Shown: positions 19,274-42,496, numbered from the whole stretch's first letter. The stretch is 61,845 bases of DNA, filler included, from Globobulimina sp. (GCA_003354225.1; 16 parts of 16 records of this genome joined end to end with filler, not necessarily neighbours in it), one strand, 5' to 3'. Notes: generated from the sequence alone by a model not told the origin. Made by a program: numbers and translations.

Positions 19274-19374
19274 NNNNNNNNNNNNNNNNNNNNNNNNNNN
19301 NNNNNNNNNNNNNNNNNTTAATTAATTAANNNNNNNNNNNNNNNNNNNNNNNNNNNNNNNNNNNNNNNNNNNNT

Positions 19375-21147
19375 CAACCATTTGCAAAGAATATCTTTAA
19401 TTTATTAGTTGCATCGAATGATGATTTATTATTCAATTTTGAGGGTTTGATGATTGATAATCACAAATTATCCGTTGAATATGCTAAATATTTATCAGAT
19501 GTTATTATTAATTTGGATGATTTTGATAAATATATAAATAGTAATATTCTAATTAATAATCAATGCAATGCATCACAAATGTTATCATTGTGCAATAAAT
19601 TTAAATCTTTGAAACAATGTAACTTTCATTCTTTAATCAAACAGCAAAATATCATTAAATTATTATGTTTGATGGATAAATCATTTTTTTTCAAGGTTTT
19701 AATCAAATTAATTATTAATTATGACAATATTCAATCTTATTTGCAAATATTTGACGCGGATAAGTTTTGTCAAATAATTGAAACTGACATTGATATCATT
19801 GCTTATTATTCATTAAAACAAAGCGATTCACGCAATAATGCATTCTGCATAAAAAATTTATGTGTTCTTTGTGATAAATTTAAAGTGAAATTTGTGGTGA
19901 ATACATTTTTAATATCACAAATATATGATTTATTAACCAATATTAACATGGATATAGTTGCTTTATTTAATCATATAAATATAGAAAAAATACCAAAAAA
20001 TGTAGGAATTATATTATGTAATTATTGTTTTACTGCGTTGATTGCATCAGAAAATAACAGAGATTTTGAGAATGGACTCATTGAATTAATATTAAAATTG
20101 TGTAAATACGACAAGAGAGTCAGTAAAGAACCAATCGAATTATGTATTTCTTACATTTTATGCCAACAATTGAATGGTGAGAAAATTAGCAAATTAAAGT
20201 CAAATCCAAAAAAAAACAAAAAACAAAAACACACAAAAACATTAACTCCGAAAATACGAATAAATCCGTATGCCACGGCATTATTAAAACAAATTGATAA
20301 GGAAAATATGCATAAATTTGATGCATTGAAAAAAATAATACATGAAAATAATAGAAAAAAACAAGAATTTAAACAGGAAGATAACAATAATAACAATGCT
20401 ATGCCAAAGAATGAAAAAGAGGCCAAAACATATGAATTATGTTGGTATTTACTCTCAAAATTGTGTGTATTTTATGTGCCATATTTATCGGAGTTCATTC
20501 AACAAATATTGCCAGGAATCCATTTGGAACCTTCACAATCGCGGTACACAGAATCGGTGCAAAAAGGGACAGTTTTAATGTTTGACCACGACATTTTAGT
20601 TTTGTTTGAAGCCTATCCCGATTTATTAATGATAATAAAATTATTTTGTGTTCATAGCAAACTCTCTGAAAATAACAGCACACACAACGACATATTGGTG
20701 TATTTACGCAGTTTATGTGTTTCATATTATATAAAATGCACAAAATATACAAAAGCATTGAAAGTGAATGGTAAGAAGTGCATGGCGCGAAATAGAAATA
20801 GAAATAGAGATAGAAAGGAAGAGTATGATCAATTTTATGGTGTTTGTAATGTATTATTTGAGTGTATATATTTGAGCGAGAAGATATCGTTAAAATTTTA
20901 TAAAATGGTGGGATTATTATTTGATTTGGATTTGAATGAAATTGGTAAATTATTTCGTCATATTTGTAATTTATGTCTGCAGCCCCAACAAAATCAAATT
21001 GTGGCAAAATCCGCACCGTCTTTTCCATTGAAATTAAATCAGAAAATGCTAGAAACAGAAAAACGAGTGATTCGACAAATATTATTACAAAATACTGATT
21101 TAATGAGCAAACACGTCGTCTTTGTGGCCTCCATACTGTCAAAGTGA
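19375..21147 (+). CDS. Hypothetical alpha-helical protein, 5' truncated
   Basis: An open frame of more than 560 codons in AT-rich DNA; no motif recognised. Confidence 0.7.
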   Translation, partial: QPFAKNIFNLLVASNDDLLFNFEGLMIDNHKLSVEYAKYLSDVIINLDDFDKYINSNILINNQCNASQMLSLCNKFKSLKQCNFHSLIKQQNIIKLLCLMDKSFFFKVLIKLIINYDNIQSYLQIFDADKFCQIIETDIDIIAYYSLKQSDSRNNAFCIKNLCVLCDKFKVKFVVNTFLISQIYDLLTNINMDIVALFNHINIEKIPKNVGIILCNYCFTALIASENNRDFENGLIELILKLCKYDKRVSKEPIELCISYILCQQLNGEKISKLKSNPKKNKKQKHTKTLTPKIRINPYATALLKQIDKENMHKFDALKKIIHENNRKKQEFKQEDNNNNNAMPKNEKEAKTYELCWYLLSKLCVFYVPYLSEFIQQILPGIHLEPSQSRYTESVQKGTVLMFDHDILVLFEAYPDLLMIIKLFCVHSKLSENNSTHNDILVYLRSLCVSYYIKCTKYTKALKVNGKKCMARNRNRNRDRKEEYDQFYGVCNVLFECIYLSEKISLKFYKMVGLLFDLDLNEIGKLFRHICNLCLQPQQNQIVAKSAPSFPLKLNQKMLETEKRVIRQILLQNTDLMSKHVVFVASILSK

Positions 21148-21156
21148 AGTTAGATT

Positions 21157-22698
21157 TTAATAATAACATAGATTGATACATCGCGGAGGCTGTCCATTGT
21201 TCGCCTTTCTTGCTGCACTCTTTTCATTCTCTTTGATACGATCACCTAATTTACGGCTCACGTATTTCGTTGAAAACGTACATCCGATCTTATTGTTCAT
21301 ATAACTGTGAAATACTTCCATTGTCCACTCCAAATTGACATCAATATACAAATATGATGGGAAAAATATAACATCTGCCTTCATCCAATAATAATCGATG
21401 CAAATACATGGACCTGTCACATTATACATATTTATTAATATTCCATCGCGTTGCTCTACATTTAAGTTTATTGCCTTCAATGCTAATTGTTTATATTTTG
21501 CATATTTATTGTAATTGACATGTACGCATTCTTTGCTTTTTGTGATTGGCCATAACTTTGTCTGATCGAATGTATTCGAATAACTTTGTCTGAGCTCTTT
21601 TGCTTCAAATAAATCATTTTGACAATGCTTGCTTTTGCTTTTCTTGGTCGACACAGTCAAATCGAATGCAAACATAAATACAACGCCTTCTTCTTCATAT
21701 TTTCCACTATTTTCCCTTGTTTCATTGAAAACATTTATTAAGTCATTTACTTTCATTTTAGTCGGGTTGATATTTTCGATTATTTTAAACCCAAAACCTA
21801 CACAATTTAAAATAAGATATGATTTTGGATACGATATCGATGGGTTTTTGCTGATATGTTTTGCAGAAAACAATAAATATATTTCATTTGAAGGGAATAA
21901 TAACTCGTTTTCAGCAAATGTTTGCTTCAAACAATGAATTCTTTGTATTCCTCTATGATCATAATAATGAAACGGCGCTAACTGTGTTAATTGCGGATAT
22001 TTCATAAATAAATGGGTTTGAATCAAAGTATTAATTTCATGGAATGTCATCCCGTATAATATATTCATCGTAAATGACTTGAATATATCTCTCGGTAAGA
22101 AATTAATTTTAATTTGAGTAACACCTAAAAATTTCATAATCATTTTACAAATATTTAAATCTAAAACCTTTTGGGACATATTAGCAATAATAATATTATC
22201 TGCCTTCAATAAATATGGTATTTTTAAATATTTCTCATTGAACTTTGTAGTTAAACTAAATTGAGCGTTTTTAGGATTATTAGGATTGAATTGTTCATCG
22301 TGGATACTTAATAATATTCGTTGTGCTGTATTGTGCGGTGTAGGTGACTCAGGAAAATACACCAAATTATCACTCCATGTATTTGATAGACTGGTAATGT
22401 TAACATCTGATACACAATCAACACTATTTGGGTTGGAACAAAGCCATTCATATTCAATGCCTGCATTATATCCAAGTCGAGGTGTGATAAACATTCTGAT
22501 TCGATGATAATCATAGTCATGTTCCATATCACTATATGCGTCAGAATATGCCTGTTCTGTCAATTTAGTCTCTATGGTTGATACGTGATATCGAATAGAC
22601 GCAGTGGTTGCGATTTCATAACAATTAAATGTTTGGCAACTGCTCCATTCTGAGTGGGAAGACATGATTGAGACTGAGAGTGCAGTCCCGAAAAACAA
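21157..22698 (-). CDS. Hypothetical protein; the upstream ORF 22704-23009 may be a frameshifted 5' part
   Basis: 513-codon ORF. Its stop is only 9 bp from the stop of the convergent gene. Confidence 0.6.
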   Translation of the reverse strand: MFFGTALSVSIMSSHSEWSSCQTFNCYEIATTASIRYHVSTIETKLTEQAYSDAYSDMEHDYDYHRIRMFITPRLGYNAGIEYEWLCSNPNSVDCVSDVNITSLSNTWSDNLVYFPESPTPHNTAQRILLSIHDEQFNPNNPKNAQFSLTTKFNEKYLKIPYLLKADNIIIANMSQKVLDLNICKMIMKFLGVTQIKINFLPRDIFKSFTMNILYGMTFHEINTLIQTHLFMKYPQLTQLAPFHYYDHRGIQRIHCLKQTFAENELLFPSNEIYLLFSAKHISKNPSISYPKSYLILNCVGFGFKIIENINPTKMKVNDLINVFNETRENSGKYEEEGVVFMFAFDLTVSTKKSKSKHCQNDLFEAKELRQSYSNTFDQTKLWPITKSKECVHVNYNKYAKYKQLALKAINLNVEQRDGILINMYNVTGPCICIDYYWMKADVIFFPSYLYIDVNLEWTMEVFHSYMNNKIGCTFSTKYVSRKLGDRIKENEKSAARKANNGQPPRCINLCYY

Positions 22699-23039
22699 AT
22701 ATCTTAATAGTCATATTCACCACTGGCAGTGTGATAATTAAGCTGTAACAATCTAACCTCATTTATCTCTCTTTGCGACCACATAAAATAATAATTCTTA
22801 AATGACTCACTGTATTCACTTTTTCTTGTATTATAAGAGGTGGAATAGCTTCCTTGACAAATTACTATTTTTTCAATGCATTGCAATGAAGGAAGCAACA
22901 GTTTATGCAATATATCTGGCAATGATTTCTCGTTTGCGATCCATTCTGGACGTTTCTCATATTTTCCATTTTTCCTTTTCTTCAATATATACCAATTCGG
23001 CAAATACAATGTTTTGCATTCATGGATATTAATAGGATA

Positions 23040-23144
23040 TTATGGTTTTTGGGACAAAATATCGGTGATATTTTCGTTTTTTGGAATTGGGACTGATATT
23101 TTTGGTTTTTGGGTATCGCGATCCCCGAAGGGGTCGCGATATCC
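23040..23144. repeat. Repeat-like segment ending in a GC-rich hairpin at the contig edge
   Basis: TGGTTTTTGGG occurs twice. Hairpin TATCGCGATCCCC-GAA-GGGGTCGCGATA at 23114-23141. Confidence 0.6.
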
Positions 23145-23244: not shown

Positions 23245-24876
23245 AAATTTGCACATTTTAAGCAGAAATTGTTAAATAATAAGTTCTCGTCCATGGCCAG
23301 TCCGCACCGCGAGCGGTACCACGAAAAAAAGCAGCAAGAAGCCAGTCATTTAATCCTATTATCCGACTTAAATGCGGATGAAACCTTCATATTCAAATGC
23401 TATTCCTTGCAACACCAAACCCTTTGGATATATTCGCTCCAACGGGCCTTGGAATATAAATGCAATTTAATCCAAAACGTAATCGGCTCAGAGATCATTA
23501 AATATATCCTTTCGTTGTACTTTCTATCCTATCAACGCTTATCCACTTTGTCCACCATCTCGACGTATTTCAACCAGCTATTCAATTATAAAAATTATAA
23601 TTGTCAATATCATTACCACCACGATGCCATTTATTGGAGCAAGCACTTTAAATCTTTAATTTATAGCAACCGCTGCCATGCGCCCTCCATCTCGCTCTCC
23701 ACCAAGAAAACTGACAACTTCTTGACGTATTACAATGAGAGCAAACAGGAAAAAGAAAATGTGTCCTTGCAATTGGAAGACATGCAATTTAACGAAGCTT
23801 CCTTCCATTTGTCGAGCAATGACTGGGCCAAATTCACCAACGCTGAACGCCTGCAATTGAAATATTTCTTTATTTTTTATCATGAATTCTCTGCCTTAAA
23901 TTATAACAAACGACAGACGGAACTCAGTACTTTTTATATACGCTCCAATCATCGAAAGAAAAAGAAGAGCGATGAGGAGGAGGAGATCTGCGAAGAGGTT
24001 ATGGAAGAACTGAATAGATTGGATTTGAAGTACGAGAATATCCGCATCGATGGGTACGAATGGAACGATTTCTTCAACGATTGGATGACTTATCCTTTTA
24101 TCAAATCGTTGTTCGTGTCGTGCAACATCCAGACATTATGCATTGGTTCGGACAATTTCTATGATGAAAGCGCATCGATGATGACGCAAATGGCCAACAA
24201 TGCCATCGATTTGAAATTGGAGAATATATATCAAGGCTATGTCAGCCACAAAGATAAATATAAGAAAAGGTTTTGGGACAATGGTGGAATTGACTGGTTT
24301 TGCGATATTTTGAAATATTCCTTTTCGTTCAGCTCACATTTGTCCACTATACGCATCTTATCGTTGCGCGATAGCAATTTGACTGATAAACATATAAAAT
24401 TGTTATGCAATGCAATCAATTCGAAACGCTACGAATCGTCCAAGTCATTAACGATTCGCAAATTGAATCTGTCGCATAATTATCAGGTAAGTGATAATGT
24501 GATGAAATTGTTGTTTACGACCATTGGGAATAGGTTGCAATATTTGGAAGAGTTGGAGTTGAATGATTTGGGCGTTACTGATAAAATTGCCAGCATAATT
24601 TATGAGTTTTATTTTAATTTCCATTACAATTATAACAAAATACAGTTATTTTCTATATCTTTATTAGGGAATGCGTTCAGTTTGCAAGGCTTCAAACGAT
24701 TAAATAAATTATTTGAAAATGAGATAATTGATGAAGCAAAATTTATTAATATAAGGAAAGGGTTTCATATTGGAGTGAATGGGCGGAGAGCAGATGTAAA
24801 ACGTTTTGGATTTGATGCGAGATTACATATTGTCGTCTCAAATATTAGTATTGATATTCAACGACTTGACGAATAA
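23245..24876 (+). CDS. PH-domain C-terminus plus RNI-like leucine-rich repeat protein, 5' truncated
   Basis: PH end TFIFKCYSLQHQTLWIYSLQRAL. LRRs IRILSLRDSNLTD, IRKLNLSHNYQVSD, LEELELNDLGVTD. Confidence 0.75.
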   Translation, partial: KFAHFKQKLLNNKFSSMASPHRERYHEKKQQEASHLILLSDLNADETFIFKCYSLQHQTLWIYSLQRALEYKCNLIQNVIGSEIIKYILSLYFLSYQRLSTLSTISTYFNQLFNYKNYNCQYHYHHDAIYWSKHFKSLIYSNRCHAPSISLSTKKTDNFLTYYNESKQEKENVSLQLEDMQFNEASFHLSSNDWAKFTNAERLQLKYFFIFYHEFSALNYNKRQTELSTFYIRSNHRKKKKSDEEEEICEEVMEELNRLDLKYENIRIDGYEWNDFFNDWMTYPFIKSLFVSCNIQTLCIGSDNFYDESASMMTQMANNAIDLKLENIYQGYVSHKDKYKKRFWDNGGIDWFCDILKYSFSFSSHLSTIRILSLRDSNLTDKHIKLLCNAINSKRYESSKSLTIRKLNLSHNYQVSDNVMKLLFTTIGNRLQYLEELELNDLGVTDKIASIIYEFYFNFHYNYNKIQLFSISLLGNAFSLQGFKRLNKLFENEIIDEAKFINIRKGFHIGVNGRRADVKRFGFDARLHIVVSNISIDIQRLDE

Positions 24877-24979
24877 TAATCGGTTCTTGACTGTTATTTA
24901 AAACTAATTCCATCTTTTGTTTGTCATATGTTTTTCTTTAATTGACATGAAGTTTTCTTGAAGTGAGCTAGTCCTCGTC

Positions 24980-26954
24980 ATGGCAACAAGCGTTCCTGCT
25001 GAGATAGAATTAGAACGCAAAGTAGACCGTAACCATAACCCTAACGAACTACAACAAACGAATATTTTATTAGTGCAATCCAAACCAAACCAATCTCGCA
25101 TAATATCAAAATACCAAAACAGCACTCCAAACGCAGTTCTAATCTTTATCGAATATATTCGATGGAAACTTAATTTAATATTATTATTTCGCCCTTTTGC
25201 CTGTTTATCATATATCCCAATCAAGCACCACTTTCACCAATGTTTGTATCGATTAACATTGTCAGAAATCATATTTTGGGCTATATTAATTTACATAGCC
25301 TATCCTCAAACACTTTGGTTTGTGCAAACCTTGTCATATTCGCCAGTTGTAATATTAGGTTCCGATGCTGTTATTGGTCGCAGATTGCTTAGCTCTGACT
25401 CTGGCGATGGAGATGGCGATGGAGGCCATAGCGAAAGTGGTGAATCTGCAGAAATATGGTTAGCCATTGCATGGGTTTTAGCATTAAGAAATACGTTTTT
25501 ATGGAATGTTCTGTTTGGATTTTCTTTTGGTATTACTTCCCAGCAACACAACCAACGCAATATCTTCTGACATGCACCAATACACAGAGAGAATGGTCGT
25601 AATCCATCGTATAATCGGACGCTTTGCAGTTGTATTGGGCGTATATCATTTTTGGGAGTATAGAAATTTTGATTGGTTTGCCGGTAAATGTTACACCGGA
25701 TCGATGGCATTGATTCCATTACTTGTGATATTGCTAACTAGTTTGAATATATTTCGCCGCAATATATTTACAATTTTTTCGAAACTCCATTGGATCGGTA
25801 TTCTTATGTTTGCATTTTATGCATATCAACATGGCGCACCATGGCTGTTATTGCCATTGGGCTTAACTTTGATGGATGTAATGTATCGATGGTATACAAC
25901 GTTTGCAAAGCCAGTGATCATTGATGACATAGCAATGTTGCATGGCAATGTGATGCGCATTGTATTCAACAAAACTGGCTTTAAATACGAAGCTGGACAA
26001 TATGTGTTTGTCTGTATTCCCGCCATTGATTTCACGCAGTATCATCCTTTCAGCTTATCGTCGTCGCCGCATCACGCAGACAATCTGTCCATTCATATTC
26101 GTGTTTTAGGTGACTGGACAGCAAAATTAAAAACGCTGACAGCACATTACCAGAACAACAAAAATAAAGCAGATTGGCAGCAGTTGACTTGTTTCGTGGA
26201 GGGACCCTATGGTTCATTGCAAGTTCCTTTGCACGAATATGAATCTATTGTGATGATATCAGGCGGCATTGGTATTACTCCGCTGCAGTCCATATTTAAT
26301 GAGTTGCTGCACAATATATCGACAAATAGTAATGCTAGAAATGATGAGTATATGTTTAGCGATTCTAAGGTGAAAAGGATTCACTTTGTATGGAGTGTAC
26401 GGGATCCATCCGTGATTTGTGAATTTAATACGAGACATTGGGCGGGCATTACATTTAAGGATGTTTTGTATTTCAGCGATGGTGATACTGCAGCTGATAC
26501 AGGCAGATTACCTCACTTTTTCTCTCCGGATTTGTTGATTGTTAAGAATGAGTCGCAAATTGTGCAACGTTGCGAGGTGATTACACATTTTTATATTACA
26601 CGGGTATTGGATCAAGATCTACGGAATGAAATGTCGAGCCAGTATCCATATTTACGTTTTGGGAGACCAAATGTTGAGGACATTTTAAAACAAGCAAAGG
26701 AGGAATATAATCATAATAATAGCACAAAAATTAATTGCGTCAGTTCATTTGTAACAAGAGGAGGACCGGGTGTTACTGTCTTAAGTTGTGGACCAAAAGG
26801 CATGTTACAAGACGTTAAAAAATATGCAACGCGATATGGAATTGACTGTCATGAGCCTGCAGCCTCATGTCAGCTGCATGATCTGAGAGGGTTGCTGGGT
26901 GGTAGTGTGTCTGAAAACTGGCACTGCATGCAAGTGAGATGGCTGGTGGACTGA
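24980..26954 (+). CDS. Ferric reductase / NADPH oxidase family flavocytochrome; 2 exons
   Basis: Intron 25530-25587 gives LFGFSF-ERMVVIHR. Two H-x13-H heme pairs, HPFSLSS (FAD), EGPYG, GGIGITP (NADPH) and CGP. Confidence 0.92.
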
Positions 26955-27121
26955 AGAACCCCCATCAATCAGGAGATTTGTATCAGGACAATGGTATCAT
27001 TGGGGTATCATTGGGNNNNNNNNNNNNNNNNNNNNNNNNNNNNNNNNNNNNNNNNNNNNTTAATTAATTAANNNNNNNNNNNNNNNNNNNNNNNNNNNNN
27101 NNNNNNNNNNNNNNNATTACA

Positions 27122-28438
27122 ATGTTGAAATGTTTAATCGTTTGTTTATTACCATTAGTTACAATTTCAAAACGTTATATTGTAAAATTAAAAGAAGATC
27201 CAAATGTATGGATGGAAAATACAATAGTAAATAATAATCATATGAAAAAATTAAATACAAAGAAAACAAAAATGATTTTTATGGATACAGAAATTGAACC
27301 AGAACAATGGAATGATGAGAATGTTTTATCATATGAAGAAGATAAATTAATATCAATACCACAAGATAACCATAAACAATCACCTTATTATACTTGTAGT
27401 AAAACCTGGGGTAATGACCGTATTAATGAAGAAAATTTACCATTAGATGGTATACATTTAGGAGATGGAACAGGAGAATTAAGAGGTGATGATGTAGATG
27501 TTTATATATTAGATACTGGAATTAATGTAGCACATAATTCTTTTCCAACACCCCCAACTTGGTTGGCCCATTTTGGTCCTGGTACAGATGATGATTGTCA
27601 AGGTCATGGAACTCATGTAGCAGGAACAATTGGAGGAACTTTAACAGGTGTGTCACCAAATGCAAATATATTTGCTGTAAAAATCTCAGGTTGGTGTACT
27701 GGTTCAGCACAGTGTTCTGACATGATTGAAGCAATTGGGTATGTTCAAGATAGAATGGAAAGTAATGGTAGAAAAACAGTTATTAATTTATCTTTTGGTA
27801 TTTGTTCTTCAGTAACAACTGCTATCAATGAGTTTGTAGATGCTGGTGGTTTATTTGCATTAGCATCAGGTAATGATGGAGAAGACCAATGTTCTTATAC
27901 AGGATATTCAACATTAGATAAATCAGGTTCATTTTTAGTAGGAGCAAGTGAAAGTGACGATGATGTATCATGGTTCTCAAATCATGGGTCGTGTGTTGAT
28001 ATTTATGCTCCAGGAAGTGCTATTTTATCAGCAGATTATTCAAATGTAAATAGTTGTGTTTCTTGGGATGGAACTTCTATGGCGTCACCTCATGTAGCAG
28101 GAGCAATGGCTTTATTATGGTCAAGGAATCCTTTATTCACAAATACACAATTAAGAACCTTATTAATGAATAATGCTTTATCAAATAAATTAGATTTTAA
28201 AAGTTTCTCTGGGAATAATAAATTATTATATTTAGATAATGATGCGAGTAGTTCACCTACACCGAATGATTCTTCTGAAGATAAAGAAGAAGATGAGAAA
28301 TGGTATGAAATAGTTTTAGATAAGTGGTGGTTAATTTTTCCATTTATGGGAGTTTTCTTTGCTTGTGTAGGAATATGTACTCGTCGTAAACGAGAAACTA
28401 TTATTAGAGAAATCCAACCAGGAGATTCTATCGTTTAA
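27122..28438 (+). CDS. Subtilisin-like serine protease (S8A, proteinase K-like) with signal peptide, prodomain and C-terminal TM anchor
   Basis: Catalytic triad motifs YILDTGI, HGTHVAGTIG and GTSMASPHVAG. TM segment WWLIFPFMGVFFACVGIC. Confidence 0.95.
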   Translation: MLKCLIVCLLPLVTISKRYIVKLKEDPNVWMENTIVNNNHMKKLNTKKTKMIFMDTEIEPEQWNDENVLSYEEDKLISIPQDNHKQSPYYTCSKTWGNDRINEENLPLDGIHLGDGTGELRGDDVDVYILDTGINVAHNSFPTPPTWLAHFGPGTDDDCQGHGTHVAGTIGGTLTGVSPNANIFAVKISGWCTGSAQCSDMIEAIGYVQDRMESNGRKTVINLSFGICSSVTTAINEFVDAGGLFALASGNDGEDQCSYTGYSTLDKSGSFLVGASESDDDVSWFSNHGSCVDIYAPGSAILSADYSNVNSCVSWDGTSMASPHVAGAMALLWSRNPLFTNTQLRTLLMNNALSNKLDFKSFSGNNKLLYLDNDASSSPTPNDSSEDKEEDEKWYEIVLDKWWLIFPFMGVFFACVGICTRRKRETIIREIQPGDSIV

Positions 28439-28465
28439 GTTCTTGATTCTTCTCCATTTAATCAA

Positions 28466-28499
28466 ATAATTAGGAAAAATAATTATATTTCTTAATTAT
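28466..28499. terminator. AT-rich near-perfect palindrome between genes (candidate hairpin terminator/polyadenylation signal)
   Basis: ATAATTAGGAAAAATAA / TTATATTTCTTAATTAT. Confidence 0.5.
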
Positions 28500-28506
28500 A
28501 TAAAAA

Positions 28507-30552
28507 ATGTTTTTCTTATCAACATTACTATCATTAATAAATATTGTTCAAAGTGTTCCATTATATATGGATTACCAGGTTCAGGAAGATTTAATACCTA
28601 TTATCGGATATCACAGAATAGATGATGTTTATGAAGATTCAACAAGTATCCTTACACAAAATTTTAGAGATCAATTAGATTATTTAACAAATGTTATAAA
28701 TTGTAATTGGATAAGTATGGAAACTTTATCATATTATATTAAAAACAAAGAAAAAGTTCCAACAAATGTTTGTATTATCAATTTTGATGATGGTGGAGAT
28801 TCAGAATATCATAAAGGTTTATGCACATTAAACACTCATAAAATAATTTCCACATTTTATATTATTACTGATAGAGTTGATGAGGGGAATTATATGACAT
28901 GGCAAGAAATTGATAATTTACATGATATTGGTCATGTTATTGGATCACATACATTAACCCATCCTCATTTAGATGATTTGAGTTATTCTGAACAAGAATT
29001 AGAGATTTTACAATCAAAGATAGATCTAGAATCTAAAGGATATGATGTTACAACAATTGCATATCCATTTGGTGGCGAGAATGAAGATACAATAACAATA
29101 TTAAAAAATTCAGATTATATTTTAGGTAGAGAAACTGTAATAAGTTTTTGGAAAGATAGACGGGCAGTAACAACTAGTTATAATGATGATTATTTATGGT
29201 CATTTAATTATATAAAACCTGAATTTTTAACTCCGATAGAATTAGCTAATATAGTAAAATATACAGGTTGGTGGCAATTTCAGAATAATTATCAGATTAT
29301 CAATGGTAATAGTGTAAATATTAAAGCATTCTCATCTTCAAAATATCTTCCTACAGATACAAGTTATGGTGTTCTTGTTATGAAATTAGAAAATGATGAA
29401 ATATTAACTACATTTAAAACTAAATATTCTGGTGATTTTACTTTAGATATATTATCAAGTAATACAACTACTATTCCATTTTCTGTAAAAATAGATGATA
29501 TTTCATATCCTGTTTATACACATGAATATGATTCTCCTTATCATTTGTATTTTTCAGTTTTTGTTGATTATTATAATTTTTATATAAATATAGGAATATT
29601 AAATCCTGGAGTTCATACTCTAAGTATTATTAATGATAATTCTGATATTTTGTATCTAGATAAATATAGATTATTTTCAAATGTAAATCAAGATTTTAGT
29701 GATACAACGGATGTAGATAATTATAAAGATTGTAATGAAACAACTAATGATTATTGTTCATGTGATCCAATATCATTACCGTCATCAGACCCAACTTGTG
29801 AAAATGGAATTATATGGAATGAAGTTTGTTGTGATATTAAATGTGGAACTTGTGGAGGTTCTGGGTGTAGTGGAAGAGAAGGTGGTTCATCAAGTTGTTG
29901 CACTTCTTCTATTATAGCTGCTGATAATTCTTGTGATGAACAAGAAGCTCCTTGTATGATAAAAATAGAAATAGGATCAGATCCAACTTGTGAGAATGGA
30001 ATATTATGGGGAGATGTTTGTTGTGATAGTTCTTGTGGAACTTGTGGAGGTTCTGGGTGTTCATTAAGATCAGGAGGATCAACAAGTTGTTGTACTGGAA
30101 GTATAATATCAGATGATAATAGTTGTGATGTTCAAGGAGCACCTTGTGTAATAAAACAACTAAGTAAAGAACCAGACCCAACTTGTACTAATGGAATATT
30201 ATCTGGAGATGTTTGTTGTGATAGTTCTTGTGGAACTTGTGGAGGTTCTGGTTGTGGTAATAGAGAAGGAGGATCATCAAGTTGTTGTACTGGAAGTATA
30301 ACCTTAGATGATAATAGTTGTGATGTTCAAGGATCACCTTGTGTAATAAAACAACTAAGTGAAGAACCAGACCCAACTTGTACTAATGGAATATTATATG
30401 AAGATGTTTGTTGTGCTAGTTCTTGTGGAACTTGTGGAGGTTCTGGTTGTGGTAATAGAGAAGGAGGATCATCAAGTTGTTGCACTTCTTCTATTATAGC
30501 TGCTGATATTTTTTGCGATGTTCAAGGAGCACCTTGTGTAATATCAAATTAG
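28507..30552 (+). CDS. Secreted polysaccharide deacetylase (CE4/NodB) with a beta-rich middle domain and four 10-Cys repeats
   Basis: PIIGYHRI, INFDDG, GSHTLTHPHL and AYPFG, followed by C-terminal repeats. Confidence 0.9.
   Translation: MFFLSTLLSLINIVQSVPLYMDYQVQEDLIPIIGYHRIDDVYEDSTSILTQNFRDQLDYLTNVINCNWISMETLSYYIKNKEKVPTNVCIINFDDGGDSEYHKGLCTLNTHKIISTFYIITDRVDEGNYMTWQEIDNLHDIGHVIGSHTLTHPHLDDLSYSEQELEILQSKIDLESKGYDVTTIAYPFGGENEDTITILKNSDYILGRETVISFWKDRRAVTTSYNDDYLWSFNYIKPEFLTPIELANIVKYTGWWQFQNNYQIINGNSVNIKAFSSSKYLPTDTSYGVLVMKLENDEILTTFKTKYSGDFTLDILSSNTTTIPFSVKIDDISYPVYTHEYDSPYHLYFSVFVDYYNFYINIGILNPGVHTLSIINDNSDILYLDKYRLFSNVNQDFSDTTDVDNYKDCNETTNDYCSCDPISLPSSDPTCENGIIWNEVCCDIKCGTCGGSGCSGREGGSSSCCTSSIIAADNSCDEQEAPCMIKIEIGSDPTCENGILWGDVCCDSSCGTCGGSGCSLRSGGSTSCCTGSIISDDNSCDVQGAPCVIKQLSKEPDPTCTNGILSGDVCCDSSCGTCGGSGCGNREGGSSSCCTGSITLDDNSCDVQGSPCVIKQLSEEPDPTCTNGILYEDVCCASSCGTCGGSGCGNREGGSSSCCTSSIIAADIFCDVQGAPCVISN
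29788..30543 (+). repeat. Four coding repeats of 192-195 bp: DPTCxNGIxxxxVCCxxxCGTCGGSGCxxRxGGSxSCCTxSIxxxDxxCDxQxxPC
   Basis: Units start at 29788, 29980, 30175 and 30370. Confidence 0.95.
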
Positions 30553-30561
30553 GGTTTTAAT

Positions 30562-30614
30562 AATTTTTTTAATTAAATAATTAGGAAATTTTTTTATATT
30601 ATACTATAATATAA
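30562..30614. terminator. Two AT-rich intergenic hairpins
   Basis: TTTTTTAATTA-AA-TAATTAGGAAA and a perfect TTATATTATA-C-TATAATATAA. AAATAATTAGGAAA is shared with the previous intergenic region. Confidence 0.5.
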
Positions 30615-30619
30615 CAAAA

Positions 30620-30886
30620 ATGAATAAATTAGTAATCACGTTCGTTTCCATCGTTTCATTAATAAATGCAGATTGTAATAATGATAATATAATGCCTGTT
30701 GTAACATGTCCATCAATAGTTACCTTACCAGCAGGTGATAATTGTTATGTTAATGTGCCAGATTATTATAATAAAGTATCTGTTACAGATAATTGTGATA
30801 CTTTTGTAAGTATTACACAATCACCAGAACCAACTTTATCATTATTCGCTTTAGGAGATTCTCTATTAACATTTACTAGTATGGAT
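30620..30886 (+). CDS. Secreted HYR-like domain protein, 3' truncated
   Basis: Signal peptide, then DNIMPVVTCP...VPDY...VTDNCD...ITQSP...LTFTSMD. Confidence 0.7.
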
Positions 30887-38726: not shown

Positions 38727-39063
38727 CATCAAGATACCTACCATGTTTTTCATTATCTAGAGTGGTTAAATTCCAATTTTCAAATGATATCACGTTATGC
38801 TGTTTTTTTAATCGTATTTTTTCTTCACATAATACCATCCAATATTTAAGATGTAAATCATTCTTTTTTTTAGAGGTTTCCTTCATATGATAACATTTAA
38901 AACCTAATTCATGCAAACCAGACTGCAATGATGATGTTCCCGTGCGACCGAAACCAGCACCAATGATAATTGGTTTATCTTTGGTTGTACTTTTGATAGT
39001 AATATTGCCTGTTTGGGGATCAGTACGTTTCTCACCAAAAAACTTCATGACCAACGAAAACAT
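38727..39063 (-). CDS. Sulfotransferase-like P-loop protein, 3' truncated
   Basis: IIGAGFGRTGTSSLQSGLHELGFKCYHM. Confidence 0.85.
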
Positions 39064-39193
39064 GATGCTTCACAGCTTAACCAAAAAACCTGAACGATGA
39101 GTTTAATAGATAACAACACCCCTGCAGCTGGTCGAGATGTAGACAAAGAGGGGGTTATTTAACCAGGGGACTCACGTGTTTTTTTGTGCAACC

Positions 39194-41498
39194 ATGGAAT
39201 CTATCATTTCATCACTCCAATCCATTCCAAAACCGTCATTTTTACGTTCCAGCAACAACCAATCATCTAACAGACAAAGGACAGAACAAAAACAACCACC
39301 AAAACCTGACAAAAACGAACAAAAAAAAGCACCTAAAAGTAATACAAAAAATGTATCATGCAATAAGACTGTGAGTAACAATGCATTTGAAAAATTAAGT
39401 ACCATACGATTGCCACCAAAACAACAAAATGAGAATGAATCAGAATACAAAATAGATTTACCAGCAATAAGTTTTACAGATTTCAGCCAATGGGATTTAA
39501 TGCCATATAATGAATTATTTGTTCGTGAACGACTACGTCGCCGCATTGATCAAAACAAAAAAGAATATGCTAAACATGGCATTATTGCAAAATCAGTTCC
39601 ATTAAAATTGGAAATAAAATCCATTGGTGAGATATTAATGTGTGGGGGTACATTGAGGTAGCTTTTCGTCATCAAACTTCCATCAAACAAATGTTTCTCA
39701 TAAACAATTCAATTAAACTTTGCAATTTATCAGAAACATTTGTTTTTTTTTTAAATTAAGTGAATTGAGAATGAGCAGATATAGCAAGAAATTATCGGTG
39801 ATTTTATCGTATTCAGTACAGTCAGCCCGACCAGTAACAAAATTAATATCTGATTTAAATGACAATGAATTATCGCAAATAATAAATAAATATAATAATT
39901 TGCGAAGAACAACACTAATAAATCAACCATGTTTATTATGTGGTATTTATGATTTATATTTTTTACATTTTATGATTGCAATTATCGAGAGATTAAATAT
40001 TAAAACAATTCAATCAAAATTGATGCAATATTTAACGAAATCATTAATTTATTGTGTTATTGGCATAAATGGGGATGTTTTAAATCTAAATCTAACACGA
40101 GATACAACATTGGATTTGTTGAATTACGAAGCAATACACACACTGTTAATGTGTATAAACAATAATTGTCATATTTGTTATCAATGTATCAAAAAATATA
40201 AATTATTTACAAGAAAAATCAATAAATCATCTCATAAATGGTTTACTTCCTTGTTATGTATGCTTGTAAGTCATGGATTTAATTTAGACAAAGTGATAAA
40301 AAATGCATCTTTGAAACATGAAACTGCATTAATGAATATTTACAACTGCGAATGGTTAGATTTGAAACAATTTTTAATTATAAATATGATGTTTCAACCA
40401 TTTAATAACAACAATGGTGTTTTAAGCAGTGATTATTTACGGAAATGGGTGCAATTTTGCGATCATTTATTGATTGAATATAATGAAATGTCAATGAAAA
40501 ATAAAGAAGAATCTAATCGTTTTTCATTAGAAATCAGATTAACTATTTTTGAGTGTTTGTTAAAAACAATAATCGAATCTAAATATTTAAATGAAATGAT
40601 TAATTATTTATATCTGAAAAAAATAGATTTTGTAACAAACAATGATATATTAATTATGTTATTGTTTTGTGGACATTACAGCGGATATCAATATATGGCA
40701 AATAAATTATTAAATACAAATAAAAAAAACATATTTAAAATATTTGAATCATTTGATGTATTATTAAGTATTACCAATATTATCTCATCAAATATCTTAA
40801 ATATTGGCAAAATCATTGCGATTCGATCATGTTTATTTCATTATAAATTTACTAAAAAATATAACATAAAAATTAATGATAAATTAATAAATAAATATAA
40901 GTTTGAATTTATTCAATGCCTAAAAATATTATTTTATGATTATGGTTTATACGAAAATGAAAAAGGGAATAATAATAATAAATATTCTCGAAAGTTACCA
41001 GGAACAGATTATAATAATGCTTATAACAAAAATGAAGTGGCTTATGTTAATATGATATCGCAAGGTTTAAAAACGCAAAAGAAATTTTTAATGGAATGCG
41101 CGTTTTTAGATATTGATATTTTACGCTGTTTAATGGAATTAAAATTATTGGATGAAAGTTTTATTGTTGATAGATTTCGAAATACATTCGATTTTATTAA
41201 ATATGAAATTAATATAAATGTTAAACAAATTTGGTATACGTTACAGCATAATGTCTTTATATATAATAAAAATATTTTTTTATTTCGTAAAATGAAGGAA
41301 AAAGAATTACGACTATTATTTCGAAAAGTAATTCGCAATGTTGTTTCAAAGGAATATAGAAAATGGATAAGTGAATTTATTATGAACGGTGTTACGCAAA
41401 ATATTGACAAAAATATGCAAATTACGAAAAGAGCGCAAATCGAAGATAAGTATAAATTGCCAAACAATGCAATATTTTTAATACATCAGTATGTTTGA
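39194..41498 (+). CDS. Hypothetical protein, 2 exons, with a weak F-box-like motif at the exon junction
   Basis: Intron 39658-39733 joins the two ORFs in frame (GGTLR-NICFFFKLSELRMSRYSKKL). Confidence 0.7.
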
Positions 41499-41608
41499 CA
41501 ATAATTATTATCAGCAAAAATGTTTTTAAATCGGACTTGTGCTCGTTTGCATAGAATCGTGTGTGAATATTAGTGTATACTTACTCTTGAAAGTATAACG
41601 TGTATATA

Positions 41609-41808
41609 TTTAAACGATATATCCCATTGGATAACCCCTTTGTATACCGAAAATTCGATTTGCAAACCCAAGACAAAGTTATAACAAACTGGTATCGAAG
41701 ACAAACCGTTTTTGGATTTGCAAACCGTTTCTCAGATAATTGAAAAAAATGCATACAATGTGGCACCAAAATACAACTGGGGGTTATCTTTTGGAATATA
41801 TCGTTAAA
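41609..41808 (+). mobile_element. MITE-like element of about 200 bp with imperfect TIRs and a possible TAA target-site duplication
   Basis: Left end TAA|ACGATATATCCCATTGGATAACCCC, right end GGGGTTATCTTTTGGAATATATCGT|TAA. It sits between convergent genes and has a homologous copy at 467-660. Confidence 0.75.
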
Positions 41809-41825
41809 TTAAAATGAATGTAGCT

Positions 41826-42496
41826 TTAAGACAAAAGCATCGGCCACGGCGTCGGCAAAGATTGTGACCATCCACATATCCTACAGTTGTTACTTGTGAT
41901 TACAAAACATAATCCATTTGCTGTGGCTTCTACATTTGATGAAATCTCATTTAATTCATTTAAAATCTCAACTGAATCTACTTCATTTCGCAAGGCTTGT
42001 TTTGTTGTATTCATATCATAAATAAACATAAAATCATTTATTTTTGAGGACTCCAACAAATATATTATTCGGCCAATATTTAATATTATACTTTTTAAAT
42101 CAATCTGTGAATTGTTGGCTGCATCAACTCTAATTTTCATTTGTCTCCTTTCAAATTTTTTTGTATGATATAAACCACTCTCAATTCCATCCAATACTGA
42201 TATATAATTTACATCATTTGTCTCAATTTTAAAATATTGTAATAATTTACATTTAAATATTTGCGGAATAACAGTTTTTAATTCTTGGTGATATATCACA
42301 TCATCATCGATGAAAATGTTTGATTCCTCTGGATAATAATGAAAATTTGTTATATTTTGTCCTGTTTTTAATATTTGATTTATCATTTTAATGGATGGAT
42401 CCTTCAATATAACTTGTTGCAATTTGCTAAAATTAATGTTACTAAAATCAGTGGTAGTATACGAATAAGAATACAATAAAAATTGTAAATTATGTC
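41826..42496 (-). CDS. Hypothetical protein, C-terminal fragment
   Basis: Open frame of more than 210 codons reaching close to the contig edge. Confidence 0.6.

Follow-up and report, generated by a model that had tools for sequence, protein, structure and literature searches.

The stretch of DNA considered here, referred to throughout as the window, comprises 61,845 bases of the Globobulimina sp. assembly (GCA_003354225.1), in which 16 unlinked pieces of 3769-3777 bp each are joined by linkers of N44 + 12 nucleotides (nt) + N44. Our subject is the eighth piece, contig 8, which fills exactly the interval given in Table 1, has no physical link to the pieces standing to its left and right in the window, and carries genes for a predicted membrane-anchored subtilase of family S8, a CE4 polysaccharide de-N-acetylase and a HYR-domain protein cut by the contig edge. 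As developed below, contig 8 very likely represents part of the genome of a mimivirus-like (Imitervirales-type) giant virus that occurred in the sequenced material, and would stem either from a free or replicating virus or from a recent, little-changed insertion. When this origin is taken together with a proposed chitin- or chitosan-based mechanism at a cell surface, and most of the weight is placed on the origin, the combined reading is a likely one.

Table 1. Features of contig 8, in coordinates of the window (aa, amino acids; GC, guanine-cytosine content)
Feature	Position	Strand	Basis or remark
Contig 8, giant-virus-like fragment, three genes	27116..30886	+	Contig bounds; 29.5% GC
S8 subtilase gene, 438 aa	27122..28438	+	Pfam PF00082; PDB matches; hydropathy
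Spacer 1, 68 bp	28439..28506	+	AT-rich hairpin, 12-bp stem, arms within 28466-28499; block common with spacer 2
CE4 polysaccharide de-N-acetylase gene, 681 aa	28507..30552	+	Pfam PF01522; AlphaFold; Foldseek
Spacer 2, 67 bp	30553..30619	+	Direct repeat D4; weak palindromes
HYR-domain protein gene, 5' part, 89 codons, ends at contig edge	30620..30886	+	Pfam HYR sub-threshold; homologue P0168

An initial annotation, made from the nucleotide sequence alone, had described three co-oriented, intron-less genes with A/T-ending codons, short spacers of nearly equal length, A-runs before both internal start codons and no Shine-Dalgarno site, and all of these features were recovered. The three open reading frames (ORFs) are uninterrupted, the spacers have the lengths expected, and the G + C fraction at third codon positions is 0.13, 0.08 and 0.12, compared with 0.20-0.53 in 15 ORFs of the other contigs. 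The internal ATG codons directly follow ATAAAAA and ACAAAA, and a reading of the sequence beside either of them revealed no purine-rich block. Signal peptides had likewise been assigned to all three products; each has a hydrophobic N-terminus with small residues ahead of the probable cleavage point, an assignment made by eye and hydropathy, and the S8 leader is kept in the S8 homologues.

Predicted products of the three genes

The first gene product belongs to peptidase family S8 by a wide margin, scoring 137.3 bits against PF00082 (curated cut-off 21.8; E 8.8e-40). Behind a hydrophobic N-terminal leader and a pro-like region of approximately 75 aa, for which neither Pfam I9 nor any other family was matched at E up to 10, lies a catalytic domain at approximately aa 94-371, followed by an acidic, Pro/Thr-containing linker, a single hydrophobic span at approximately aa 402-420 (nt 28325-28381) identified by hydropathy, and a short basic tail, RRKRE. 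The transmembrane (TM)-anchored subtilase proposed in the initial annotation is borne out by the family match and the C-terminal span. The best PDB matches, a keratinase (5wsl), aqualysin-1 and a bacterial proteinase K, cover aa 93-371 at E 4e-49 to 2.5e-47, and the DTG, HGTH and GTSMA blocks align to them. D131 (DTG), H165 (HGTH), N251 and S319 (GTSMA), by established knowledge the catalytic Asp-His-Ser and the oxyanion Asn, are invariant in 11 clade members. The protein is accordingly a predicted type-I membrane-anchored subtilase of the proteinase K type.

The second product was correctly recognized at the outset as a CE4 deacetylase: Polysacc_deac_1 (PF01522) is matched at E 2.2e-20 with 73.3 bits (curated cut-off 23.1), and the top Foldseek matches are all CE4 enzymes. 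A leader (aa 1-16) precedes the NodB/CE4 domain (approximately aa 20-210; Pfam match at nt 28750-29118), a beta-sandwich (approximately aa 255-395; nt 29269-29691) and four Cys-rich repeats of approximately 60 aa (aa 428-681; nt 29788-30549), the last with a period of 192-195 nt in the DNA. An AlphaFold model built from a 33-sequence alignment, with a mean predicted local distance difference test score (pLDDT) of 83.2, shows the NodB domain, the beta-sandwich and four small repeats. Foldseek relates the CE4 part to PplD (6dq3; TM-score on the target 0.86), BC0361/BA0330, IcaB and PgaB, and the beta-sandwich to carbohydrate-binding modules of the CBM6/27/61 type. Both motif 1 (Asp-Asp) and motif 2 (His-x-x-x-His), which supply the base and the metal triad, are present; D94, D95 and H148 are invariant among the 33 sequences and H152 is conserved in at least 90% of them. 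The FDDG, HTLTH and YPFG blocks align to BC0361, YPFG to its equivalent block, a candidate for motif 3 (Arg-Pro-Pro-Tyr type), and the His of motif 5 (Leu-x-His), the catalytic acid, was not confidently placed. Fungal chitin deacetylases give weak PDB matches (2y8u, E 3.6e-4; 7bly, E 1e-7), and the BFVD matches to the model, namely phage esterases, tail proteins and a few giant-virus proteins, have low TM-scores and are uninformative.

Relatives of the CE4 protein include 30 proteins at 40-57% identity, none of them named beyond generic JGI labels. A metagenome scan returned 128 relatives, from which 78 loci were kept and 16 (L008-L023) examined; the 62 loci L024-L085, mostly 20-43% identical over the CE4 domain only, lie outside the examined set. 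The nearest cellular outgroup, at 34%, consists of bacterial heparinase II/III-CE4 fusions encoded beside GT2, Wzy, LexA and TraG genes. Three such bacterial fusions of approximately 1200 aa, with the N and C domains of heparinase II/III (L017 6431-10075, L019 7724-11329 and L020 7733-11365), adjoin chitin-synthase-like GT2 genes in loci of the exopolysaccharide type.

For the third product, the HYR-like assignment stands as a profile match, which in the contig 8 fragment reaches 17.9 bits where Pfam requires 21.7, since the contig edge truncates the domain at profile position 67 of 81. The full-length homologue P0168 (363 aa) is 82% identical to the fragment over all 89 residues, and its HYR domain, covering positions 2-80 of 81, scores 30.2 bits, above the cut-off. 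The next relatives are HYR proteins of Flavobacteriia, at 42-45%. P0168 and P0049, a 78%-identical homologue of the S8 protein, both come from an NCBI contig of 9969 bp, which suggests that the S8 and HYR genes are linked there too.

The C-terminal end of P0168 is one copy of the CE4 protein's Cys-rich module, a unit of approximately 58 aa with ten conserved Cys residues and the core CC-x3-CG-x-CGG-x-GC. Pfam searches at E up to 10 gave no family for the CE4 protein's Cys-rich repeats or its beta-sandwich, the ESM Atlas gave no usable match for the repeats, and a single module folded alone reached a mean pLDDT of 40.8, which is unusable. At E <= 1e-3 a profile of nine copies matches 1397 representative proteins, of which 343 remain at E <= 1e-10 and 48 at E <= 1e-30; the module is therefore a large family lacking a Pfam model, with 1397 representative clusters. 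Partner domains were scanned in 109 of the 150 matches listed: CE4, beta-helix, alginate lyase, GH26 and LRR domains accompany it in 3/109 each, WSC and CHAP in 2/109 each, and LPMO10, GH5, pro-kumamolisin, CAP, PAN and Chitin_bind_1 in 1/109 each. Most proteins with the module thus lack these partners, the largest family count being three. It is also found on the S8 peptidase P0039, on P0034-P0038, and on euglenid and brown-alga proteins. The pattern of partners fits a matrix- or carbohydrate-binding tag, a role we propose from these domain associations. Exposed here is a large unnamed family that decorates secreted polysaccharide-active enzymes and offers a cheap target for binding assays.

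Composition, relatives and origin of contig 8

That contig 8 is unlike its 15 companions in the window was among the first claims made about it, and composition bears this out strongly. By dinucleotide signature, contig 8 lies at a mean distance of 206 from the other 15 contigs, which among themselves average 81 +/- 23; each of the 15 lies nearer its fellows than to viral-type loci. Contig 8 instead groups with AT-rich giant-virus-like contigs, at distances of 45-84 to four PJEL-named loci (L008, L010, L012 and L023) and 82 to the GVMAG locus L001. The main sources of the difference are CpG, with an observed/expected ratio of 0.28 in contig 8 and 1.01 +/- 0.14 (minimum 0.68) in the others, and GpC, at 0.56 and 1.21 +/- 0.09, respectively. 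The initial annotation had held that a k-mer profile matching the host would speak against a viral source; run as the dinucleotide signature, this comparison gave a profile unlike the host's, so that part of the objection falls. The other contigs have Pfam matches in 12 of 31 long ORFs, of eukaryotic kinds such as REJ, SH2, SET, SPRY, NADPH-oxidase-type ferric reductase (NOX), ABC-G and multicopper oxidase.

Several observations concern those other contigs in their own right. Contigs 6 (19374-23144) and 11 (38727-42496) are AT-rich like contig 8, at 29.6% and 27.3% GC, and hold ORFs of 517-605 aa that have no Pfam matches; despite their AT-richness, their dinucleotide signatures side with the host contigs and not with the viral-type loci. 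An Rfam search returned no match on contig 8 and a single one in the window, a tRNA of 87 nt on contig 9 (31059-31145, minus strand; 37.4 bits), which exceeds the 71-position model and may hold an intron or a long arm.

Protein searches and the S8 phylogeny, both suggested in the initial annotation as checks, place the closest relatives of all three products among metagenomic proteins and not among named bacterial or eukaryotic ones. Among the best 120 S8 matches listed, ten show 50-80% identity across 84-100% of the length, and most of these have the leader, pro-like region, Pro/Thr-acidic linker, TM span and tail in common; the remaining matches, mostly bacterial, do not exceed 42% identity. 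An alignment-based scan of IMG/VR with the S8 protein found three contigs of 44-62 kb that bear a copy 48-49% identical at the contig end, unlike a single-protein scan of viral contigs, which gave no match. On one of the S8-bearing contigs (L006), genes for a D5_N/DUF5906 primase-helicase, PCNA, DUF5764, a Pox_A22-type resolvase and an HMG-box protein precede the S8 gene, the D5_N/DUF5906, PCNA and Pox_A22 genes within 10 kb. A tree of 57 rows was built from the window's protein, the ten close matches, L004, L006, L023, 15 named proteins and 27 unnamed distant matches selected from those listed, leaving out L005 (whose match figures equal those of L006), the partial L012, L007 and the remaining distant matches. 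It places the window's protein, together with IMG/VR L004 and L006, in a clade of 14 rows with an SH-like approximate likelihood-ratio support (SH-aLRT) of 99, divided by a branch of 1.09 from the sampled bacterial and chytrid S8 proteins; 12 rows, the window's included, deviate in amino-acid composition. A member of this clade on L023 (231-3212) measures 994 aa and has a long extension at its C-terminus, with a weak PAN_4 match. Among 185,579 prokaryote species genomes scanned with the S8 protein's own peptide patterns, none yielded a relative.

The CE4 gene leads to the same kind of source. The best IMG/VR relative, 55% identical, lies on the contig GVMAG-M-…-10, which that collection labels as a marine giant-virus metagenome-assembled genome (MAG) and where a GH18 chitinase with CBM2 adjoins it, and a second contig of the same MAG matches the L013 chitin synthase, used as query, at 100% identity. 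The PJEL-named contigs L008, L010, L012 and L023 are short and resemble contig 8 in composition. Prokaryote species genomes contributed 52 CE4 loci, five of which were examined, and two of the 52 are close: L086 (50%), a contig of 1718 bp and 24% GC at a distance of 52 from contig 8, with AAAATTGA 42 nt before the CE4 gene, and L087 (45%), 6578 bp and 48% GC, which carries the CE4 gene, a eukaryote-type chitin synthase and a dehydrogenase-like gene.

The octamer AAAATTGA is an early-promoter motif found with approximately 45% of Mimivirus genes and 35% of CroV genes (PMC5294985). Across contig 8 and ten related loci (L001, L008, L010, L012, L023, L013, L015, L086, L014 and L016), which together offer 44 genes with a usable spacer, it stands in sense orientation 29-66 nt before the ATG of 16 genes, where 0.54 would be expected from spacer composition (Poisson P ~1e-18); the remaining 124 kb of strand sequence in this set holds only 15 further copies. 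The giant-virus reading, put forward in the initial annotation as a Nucleocytoviricota fragment, thus gains support because the composition of contig 8 is foreign, the S8 clade and the giant-virus MAG relative of the CE4 protein have viral contexts, and the relatives carry this early-promoter motif.

A further argument had been drawn from the spacers, in both of which palindromes had been noted. In the Mimiviridae, AT-rich hairpins lie at transcript ends (the "hairpin rule"). Palindromes do occur in both spacers of contig 8; they rise above shuffled sequences only in spacer 1, and there marginally. Spacer 1, with palindrome I9 and direct repeat D4, folds with a minimum free energy of -9.2 kcal/mol at z -2.2, equalled by 4 of 200 shuffles (z -2.28 and 7 of 200 in a repeat run), and spacer 2 reaches z -1.1, a value that 27-30 of 200 shuffles equal. 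Folding at z below -2 is seen in one of the two contig 8 spacers and in 4 of 23 overall, and hairpins are therefore not general, although three spacers of L010 contain perfect stems of 11-12 bp that 0-2 of 200 shuffles reach. Not described earlier is that the two contig 8 spacers are 76% identical over 51 nt, with AAATAATTAGGAAA in common.

Several findings weigh against this origin. Contig 8, at 3.8 kb, carries no viral hallmark gene (MCP, PolB, A32, D5 or VLTF3) and no chitin synthase, and AAAATTGA occurs in neither of its two spacers, the single copy on the contig being antisense within the CE4 gene; it is accordingly through composition, and through relatives whose proteins are 45-82% identical, that the contig is assigned to a virus. 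The hairpin-terminator argument is not supported as it was put forward, the palindromes behind it being at most marginally above chance. The term "GVMAG" is IMG/VR's own label, and the stretches retrieved from L013 and L015, which include dUTPase, RING and kinase genes, lack any core capsid or polymerase gene. L086 and L087, finally, are assigned to bacterial MAGs (Gammaproteobacteria and Verrucomicrobiales by label), and are probably giant-virus contigs mis-binned into them. Regarding the promoter, AAAATTGA is reported to be absent upstream of Mimivirus late genes (PMC5294985), and for that reason two contig 8 spacers cannot decide the mimivirus-like type; its absence there fits, without direct support, a non-early gene class. 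The CroV-type late motif TCTA is not in the contig 8 spacers and was seen in some of the relatives' spacers by reading.

Among alternative origins, the one that survives best is that contig 8 is giant-virus-derived but integrated in the protist chromosome as a recent endogenous element, which we regard as improbable but worth keeping in view. It is well documented that giant viruses insert into protist genomes, and multiple insertions could explain the diverged gene copies on other short contigs (S8 at 80, 78 and 68%, HYR at 82%). Moreover, of three sequencing runs of one sample (X1-X3, searched as Logan contigs), X1 contains both contig 8 (0.72 of its sampled words; 0.14 in X2 and 0.00 in X3) and host contig 7 (29 of 30 bins; 0 bins in X2 and X3). 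Because contig 7 shows the X1-only pattern too, the shares of contig 8 cannot be separated from those of the host. On the other side stand the absence of any host flank from contig 8, the fully unameliorated composition and the three intact ORFs with their catalytic residues kept, the last two of which a recent insertion would still fit. Contig 7 itself (23245-27015) is represented in X1 by one Logan contig at a word depth of 13.7 over 23245-26042 and then by pieces at depth 3-6, with four single-base differences; depth is thus uneven within 3.8 kb.

Far less probable is a source in an AT-rich eukaryote with a compact genome, such as a microsporidian- or fungus-like parasite. Such parasites have chitin synthases, chitin deacetylases, chitinases, subtilases, short spacers and few introns. 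The S8 and CE4 genes of contig 8, and the chitin synthase and GH18 genes of its relatives, are typical of chitin-walled eukaryotes, the Cys-rich module occurs in euglenid and brown-alga proteins, and the lack of a hallmark gene would be as expected. This source is opposed by the fixed upstream distance of AAAATTGA in 16 of the 44 genes, by the D5 primase-helicase, Pox_A22 and DUF5764 genes beside S8 clade members, and by the nearest named S8 and HYR relatives, which are bacterial and not fungal, the chytrid S8 proteins being distant in the tree. A bacterial contaminant or a host-native cluster can be set aside as the least probable origin: bacterial outgroups exist for all three proteins (S8 33-42%; HYR 42-45%, Flavobacteriia; CE4 34%, heparinase-CE4 fusions) and two close CE4 loci are labelled as coming from bacterial MAGs, but both of those contigs are short, one of them with viral composition and motif, no Shine-Dalgarno-like block is present, the prokaryote-wide scan with the S8 protein's own peptide patterns found no relative, and composition is distant from the 15 host contigs.

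If contig 8 is indeed of giant-virus origin, one contig in a fragmented protist assembly is flagged as viral and not host, which bears on its annotation and on claims of horizontal transfer, and the virus-host pair is worth pursuing.

Chitin gene clusters in relatives and a possible surface function

The initial annotation had proposed that the three products remodel a host surface, test or extracellular matrix. Gene neighbourhoods in relatives support this proposal and narrow it to chitin or chitosan, with CE4 genes lying amid chitin synthases and a GH18 chitinase. The CE4 gene stands among chitin synthases in three genomes of differing GC content: L010 (26.5%), L013/L015 (23-25%) and L087 (48%). 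On L010 the order is a short nucleotide-sugar-dehydrogenase-like gene, a chitin synthase, CE4, a 1357-aa chitin synthase and GH18 with CBM2; on L013/L015 it is a kinase, dUTPase, RING, GH18 with CBM2, CE4, the dehydrogenase-like gene, two chitin synthases, a second CE4 and a third chitin synthase. The adjacency of S8 and CE4 genes seen on contig 8 recurs on two more contigs, L012 (CE4 then S8) and L023 (the 994-aa S8 then CE4).

The cluster is conserved, of giant-virus type, at L010 1-9498, L013 7017-15476, L015 3-11036 and L087 1442-6576, and its dehydrogenase-like protein is short (approximately 280 aa) and resembles UDP-glucose/GDP-mannose dehydrogenases. On L012 (1-2822), the CE4 protein and a neighbouring protein of 458 aa have Notch LNR domains in place of the Cys-rich module.

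From this context we infer a substrate, a location, a timing and a role for the protease. All three contig 8 proteins would enter the secretory pathway. Virus-encoded chitin synthases of the kind seen on relatives' contigs would extrude an N-acetylglucosamine (GlcNAc) polymer at the infected cell's surface. The secreted, metal-dependent CE4 enzyme could bind this polymer through its sandwich and Cys-rich modules and deacetylate it in part, giving a chitosan-like polymer. The HYR protein, of an Ig-like adhesion type, may be tethered to the same matrix through the Cys-rich module it shares with the CE4 enzyme, and the anchored subtilase would process viral or host surface proteins there. Two points tell against this scheme, for which the chances appear evenly balanced. 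Chitin is the putative CE4 substrate by virtue of chitin synthase and GH18 neighbours in other genomes, and the structural neighbours of the CE4 domain act on poly-N-acetylglucosamine (PNAG), rhamnose-GlcNAc polymers or peptidoglycan, not on chitin.

The enzymes might instead be degradative, secreted late or borne by the virion and loosening a chitin- or protein-containing wall, theca or test for entry or release, a possibility we hold to be unlikely, though not negligible. A GH18 chitinase with CBM2 adjoins the CE4 gene in L001, L013 and L010, a protease fits wall lysis, and the deacetylase of chloroviruses, a review suggests, may strip acetyl groups during wall degradation (PMC5408694). The two or three chitin synthases and the nucleotide-sugar-dehydrogenase-like gene that flank CE4 in relatives form, however, a biosynthetic arrangement; the nearest folds are biosynthetic exopolysaccharide deacetylases; and the S8 protein is membrane-anchored rather than freely secreted. 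The two roles are not exclusive.

Extending the chitosan scheme beyond contig 8, we tentatively suggest a marine mimivirus-like lineage with a complete, clustered chitosan-coat system comprising two or three chitin synthases, two CE4 enzymes, a GH18 chitinase, an anchored subtilase and a HYR adhesin, its secreted parts aimed at the polymer by the Cys-rich module. Were this so, contig 8 would be the protease-deacetylase-adhesin arm of the system, in a virus that infected or lodged in the sequenced protist; the infected cell or the virus particle would be dressed in a polycationic chitosan layer; and the Cys-rich module would also occur across the secreted carbohydrate-active enzymes found in algae and protists.

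Comparison with known systems

With proteinase-K-type subtilases (5wsl, aqualysin-1 4dzt and proteinase K 2b6n), the S8 protein has the catalytic domain and the Asp-His-Ser blocks in common, and differs in its own pro-like region and in a TM anchor with a conserved tail; within the 57-row tree, its clade is found on giant-virus-like contigs only. Bacterial CE4 de-N-acetylases (PplD 6dq3, BC0361 4hd5, IcaB 4wcj and PgaB 3vus/4f9j) resemble the contig 8 enzyme in the NodB fold (TM-score on the target 0.60-0.86) and in the aligned Asp-Asp, His-x3-His and YPFG-type blocks, and they are extracellular and act on a freshly exported GlcNAc-containing polymer. Identity to them is only 14-25%, however; the contig 8 enzyme adds the beta-sandwich and the Cys-rich repeats, and its context is viral, with chitin-synthase-type GT2 enzymes in its relatives instead of PgaC/IcaA.

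Fungi make chitosan by a synthase that extrudes chitin and a secreted or anchored CE4 enzyme that deacetylates the nascent chain. The working scheme proposed here is the same, but the contig 8 CE4 protein is not an orthologue of the fungal enzymes. Among viruses, the CpV-BQ1 paper reportedly contains one generic mention of a chitin synthase. A literature search conducted mostly at the level of abstracts, with annotation supplements of MAG catalogues set aside, found no clustered synthase-deacetylase-chitinase set in mimivirus-like viruses and no description of this S8 clade or of the Cys-rich module. The chitin synthase and chitinase of the Klosneuvirinae provide a precedent, and the passage that reports them mentions no deacetylase, subtilase or HYR protein.

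The closest functional parallel comes from the chloroviruses. They encode chitin synthase, chitinases (GH18), chitosanase (GH46) and a polysaccharide deacetylase, and a protein with a polysaccharide deacetylase domain is present in 24 of 43 of them (PMC5408694); infected cells are coated with chitin fibres (PMC9614988). The likeness lies in giant-virus enzymes that make and modify a GlcNAc polymer on or at the host surface, which for contig 8 is a proposed role. The two differ in that relatives of contig 8 carry the Mimivirus/CroV-type promoter motif and would therefore belong to a different viral order. The contig 8-type CE4 protein, moreover, combines a leader with a CBM-like sandwich and 1-5 Cys-rich modules; in the relatives it clusters with synthases, and an anchored subtilase and a HYR protein are its neighbours. 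Virus-encoded chitin chemistry is thus already known from chloroviruses and klosneuviruses, and nothing here overturns current views. What the contig 8 family would add is that this chemistry, studied experimentally in chloroviruses, reaches mimivirus-like marine viruses with clustered synthase, deacetylase and chitinase genes.

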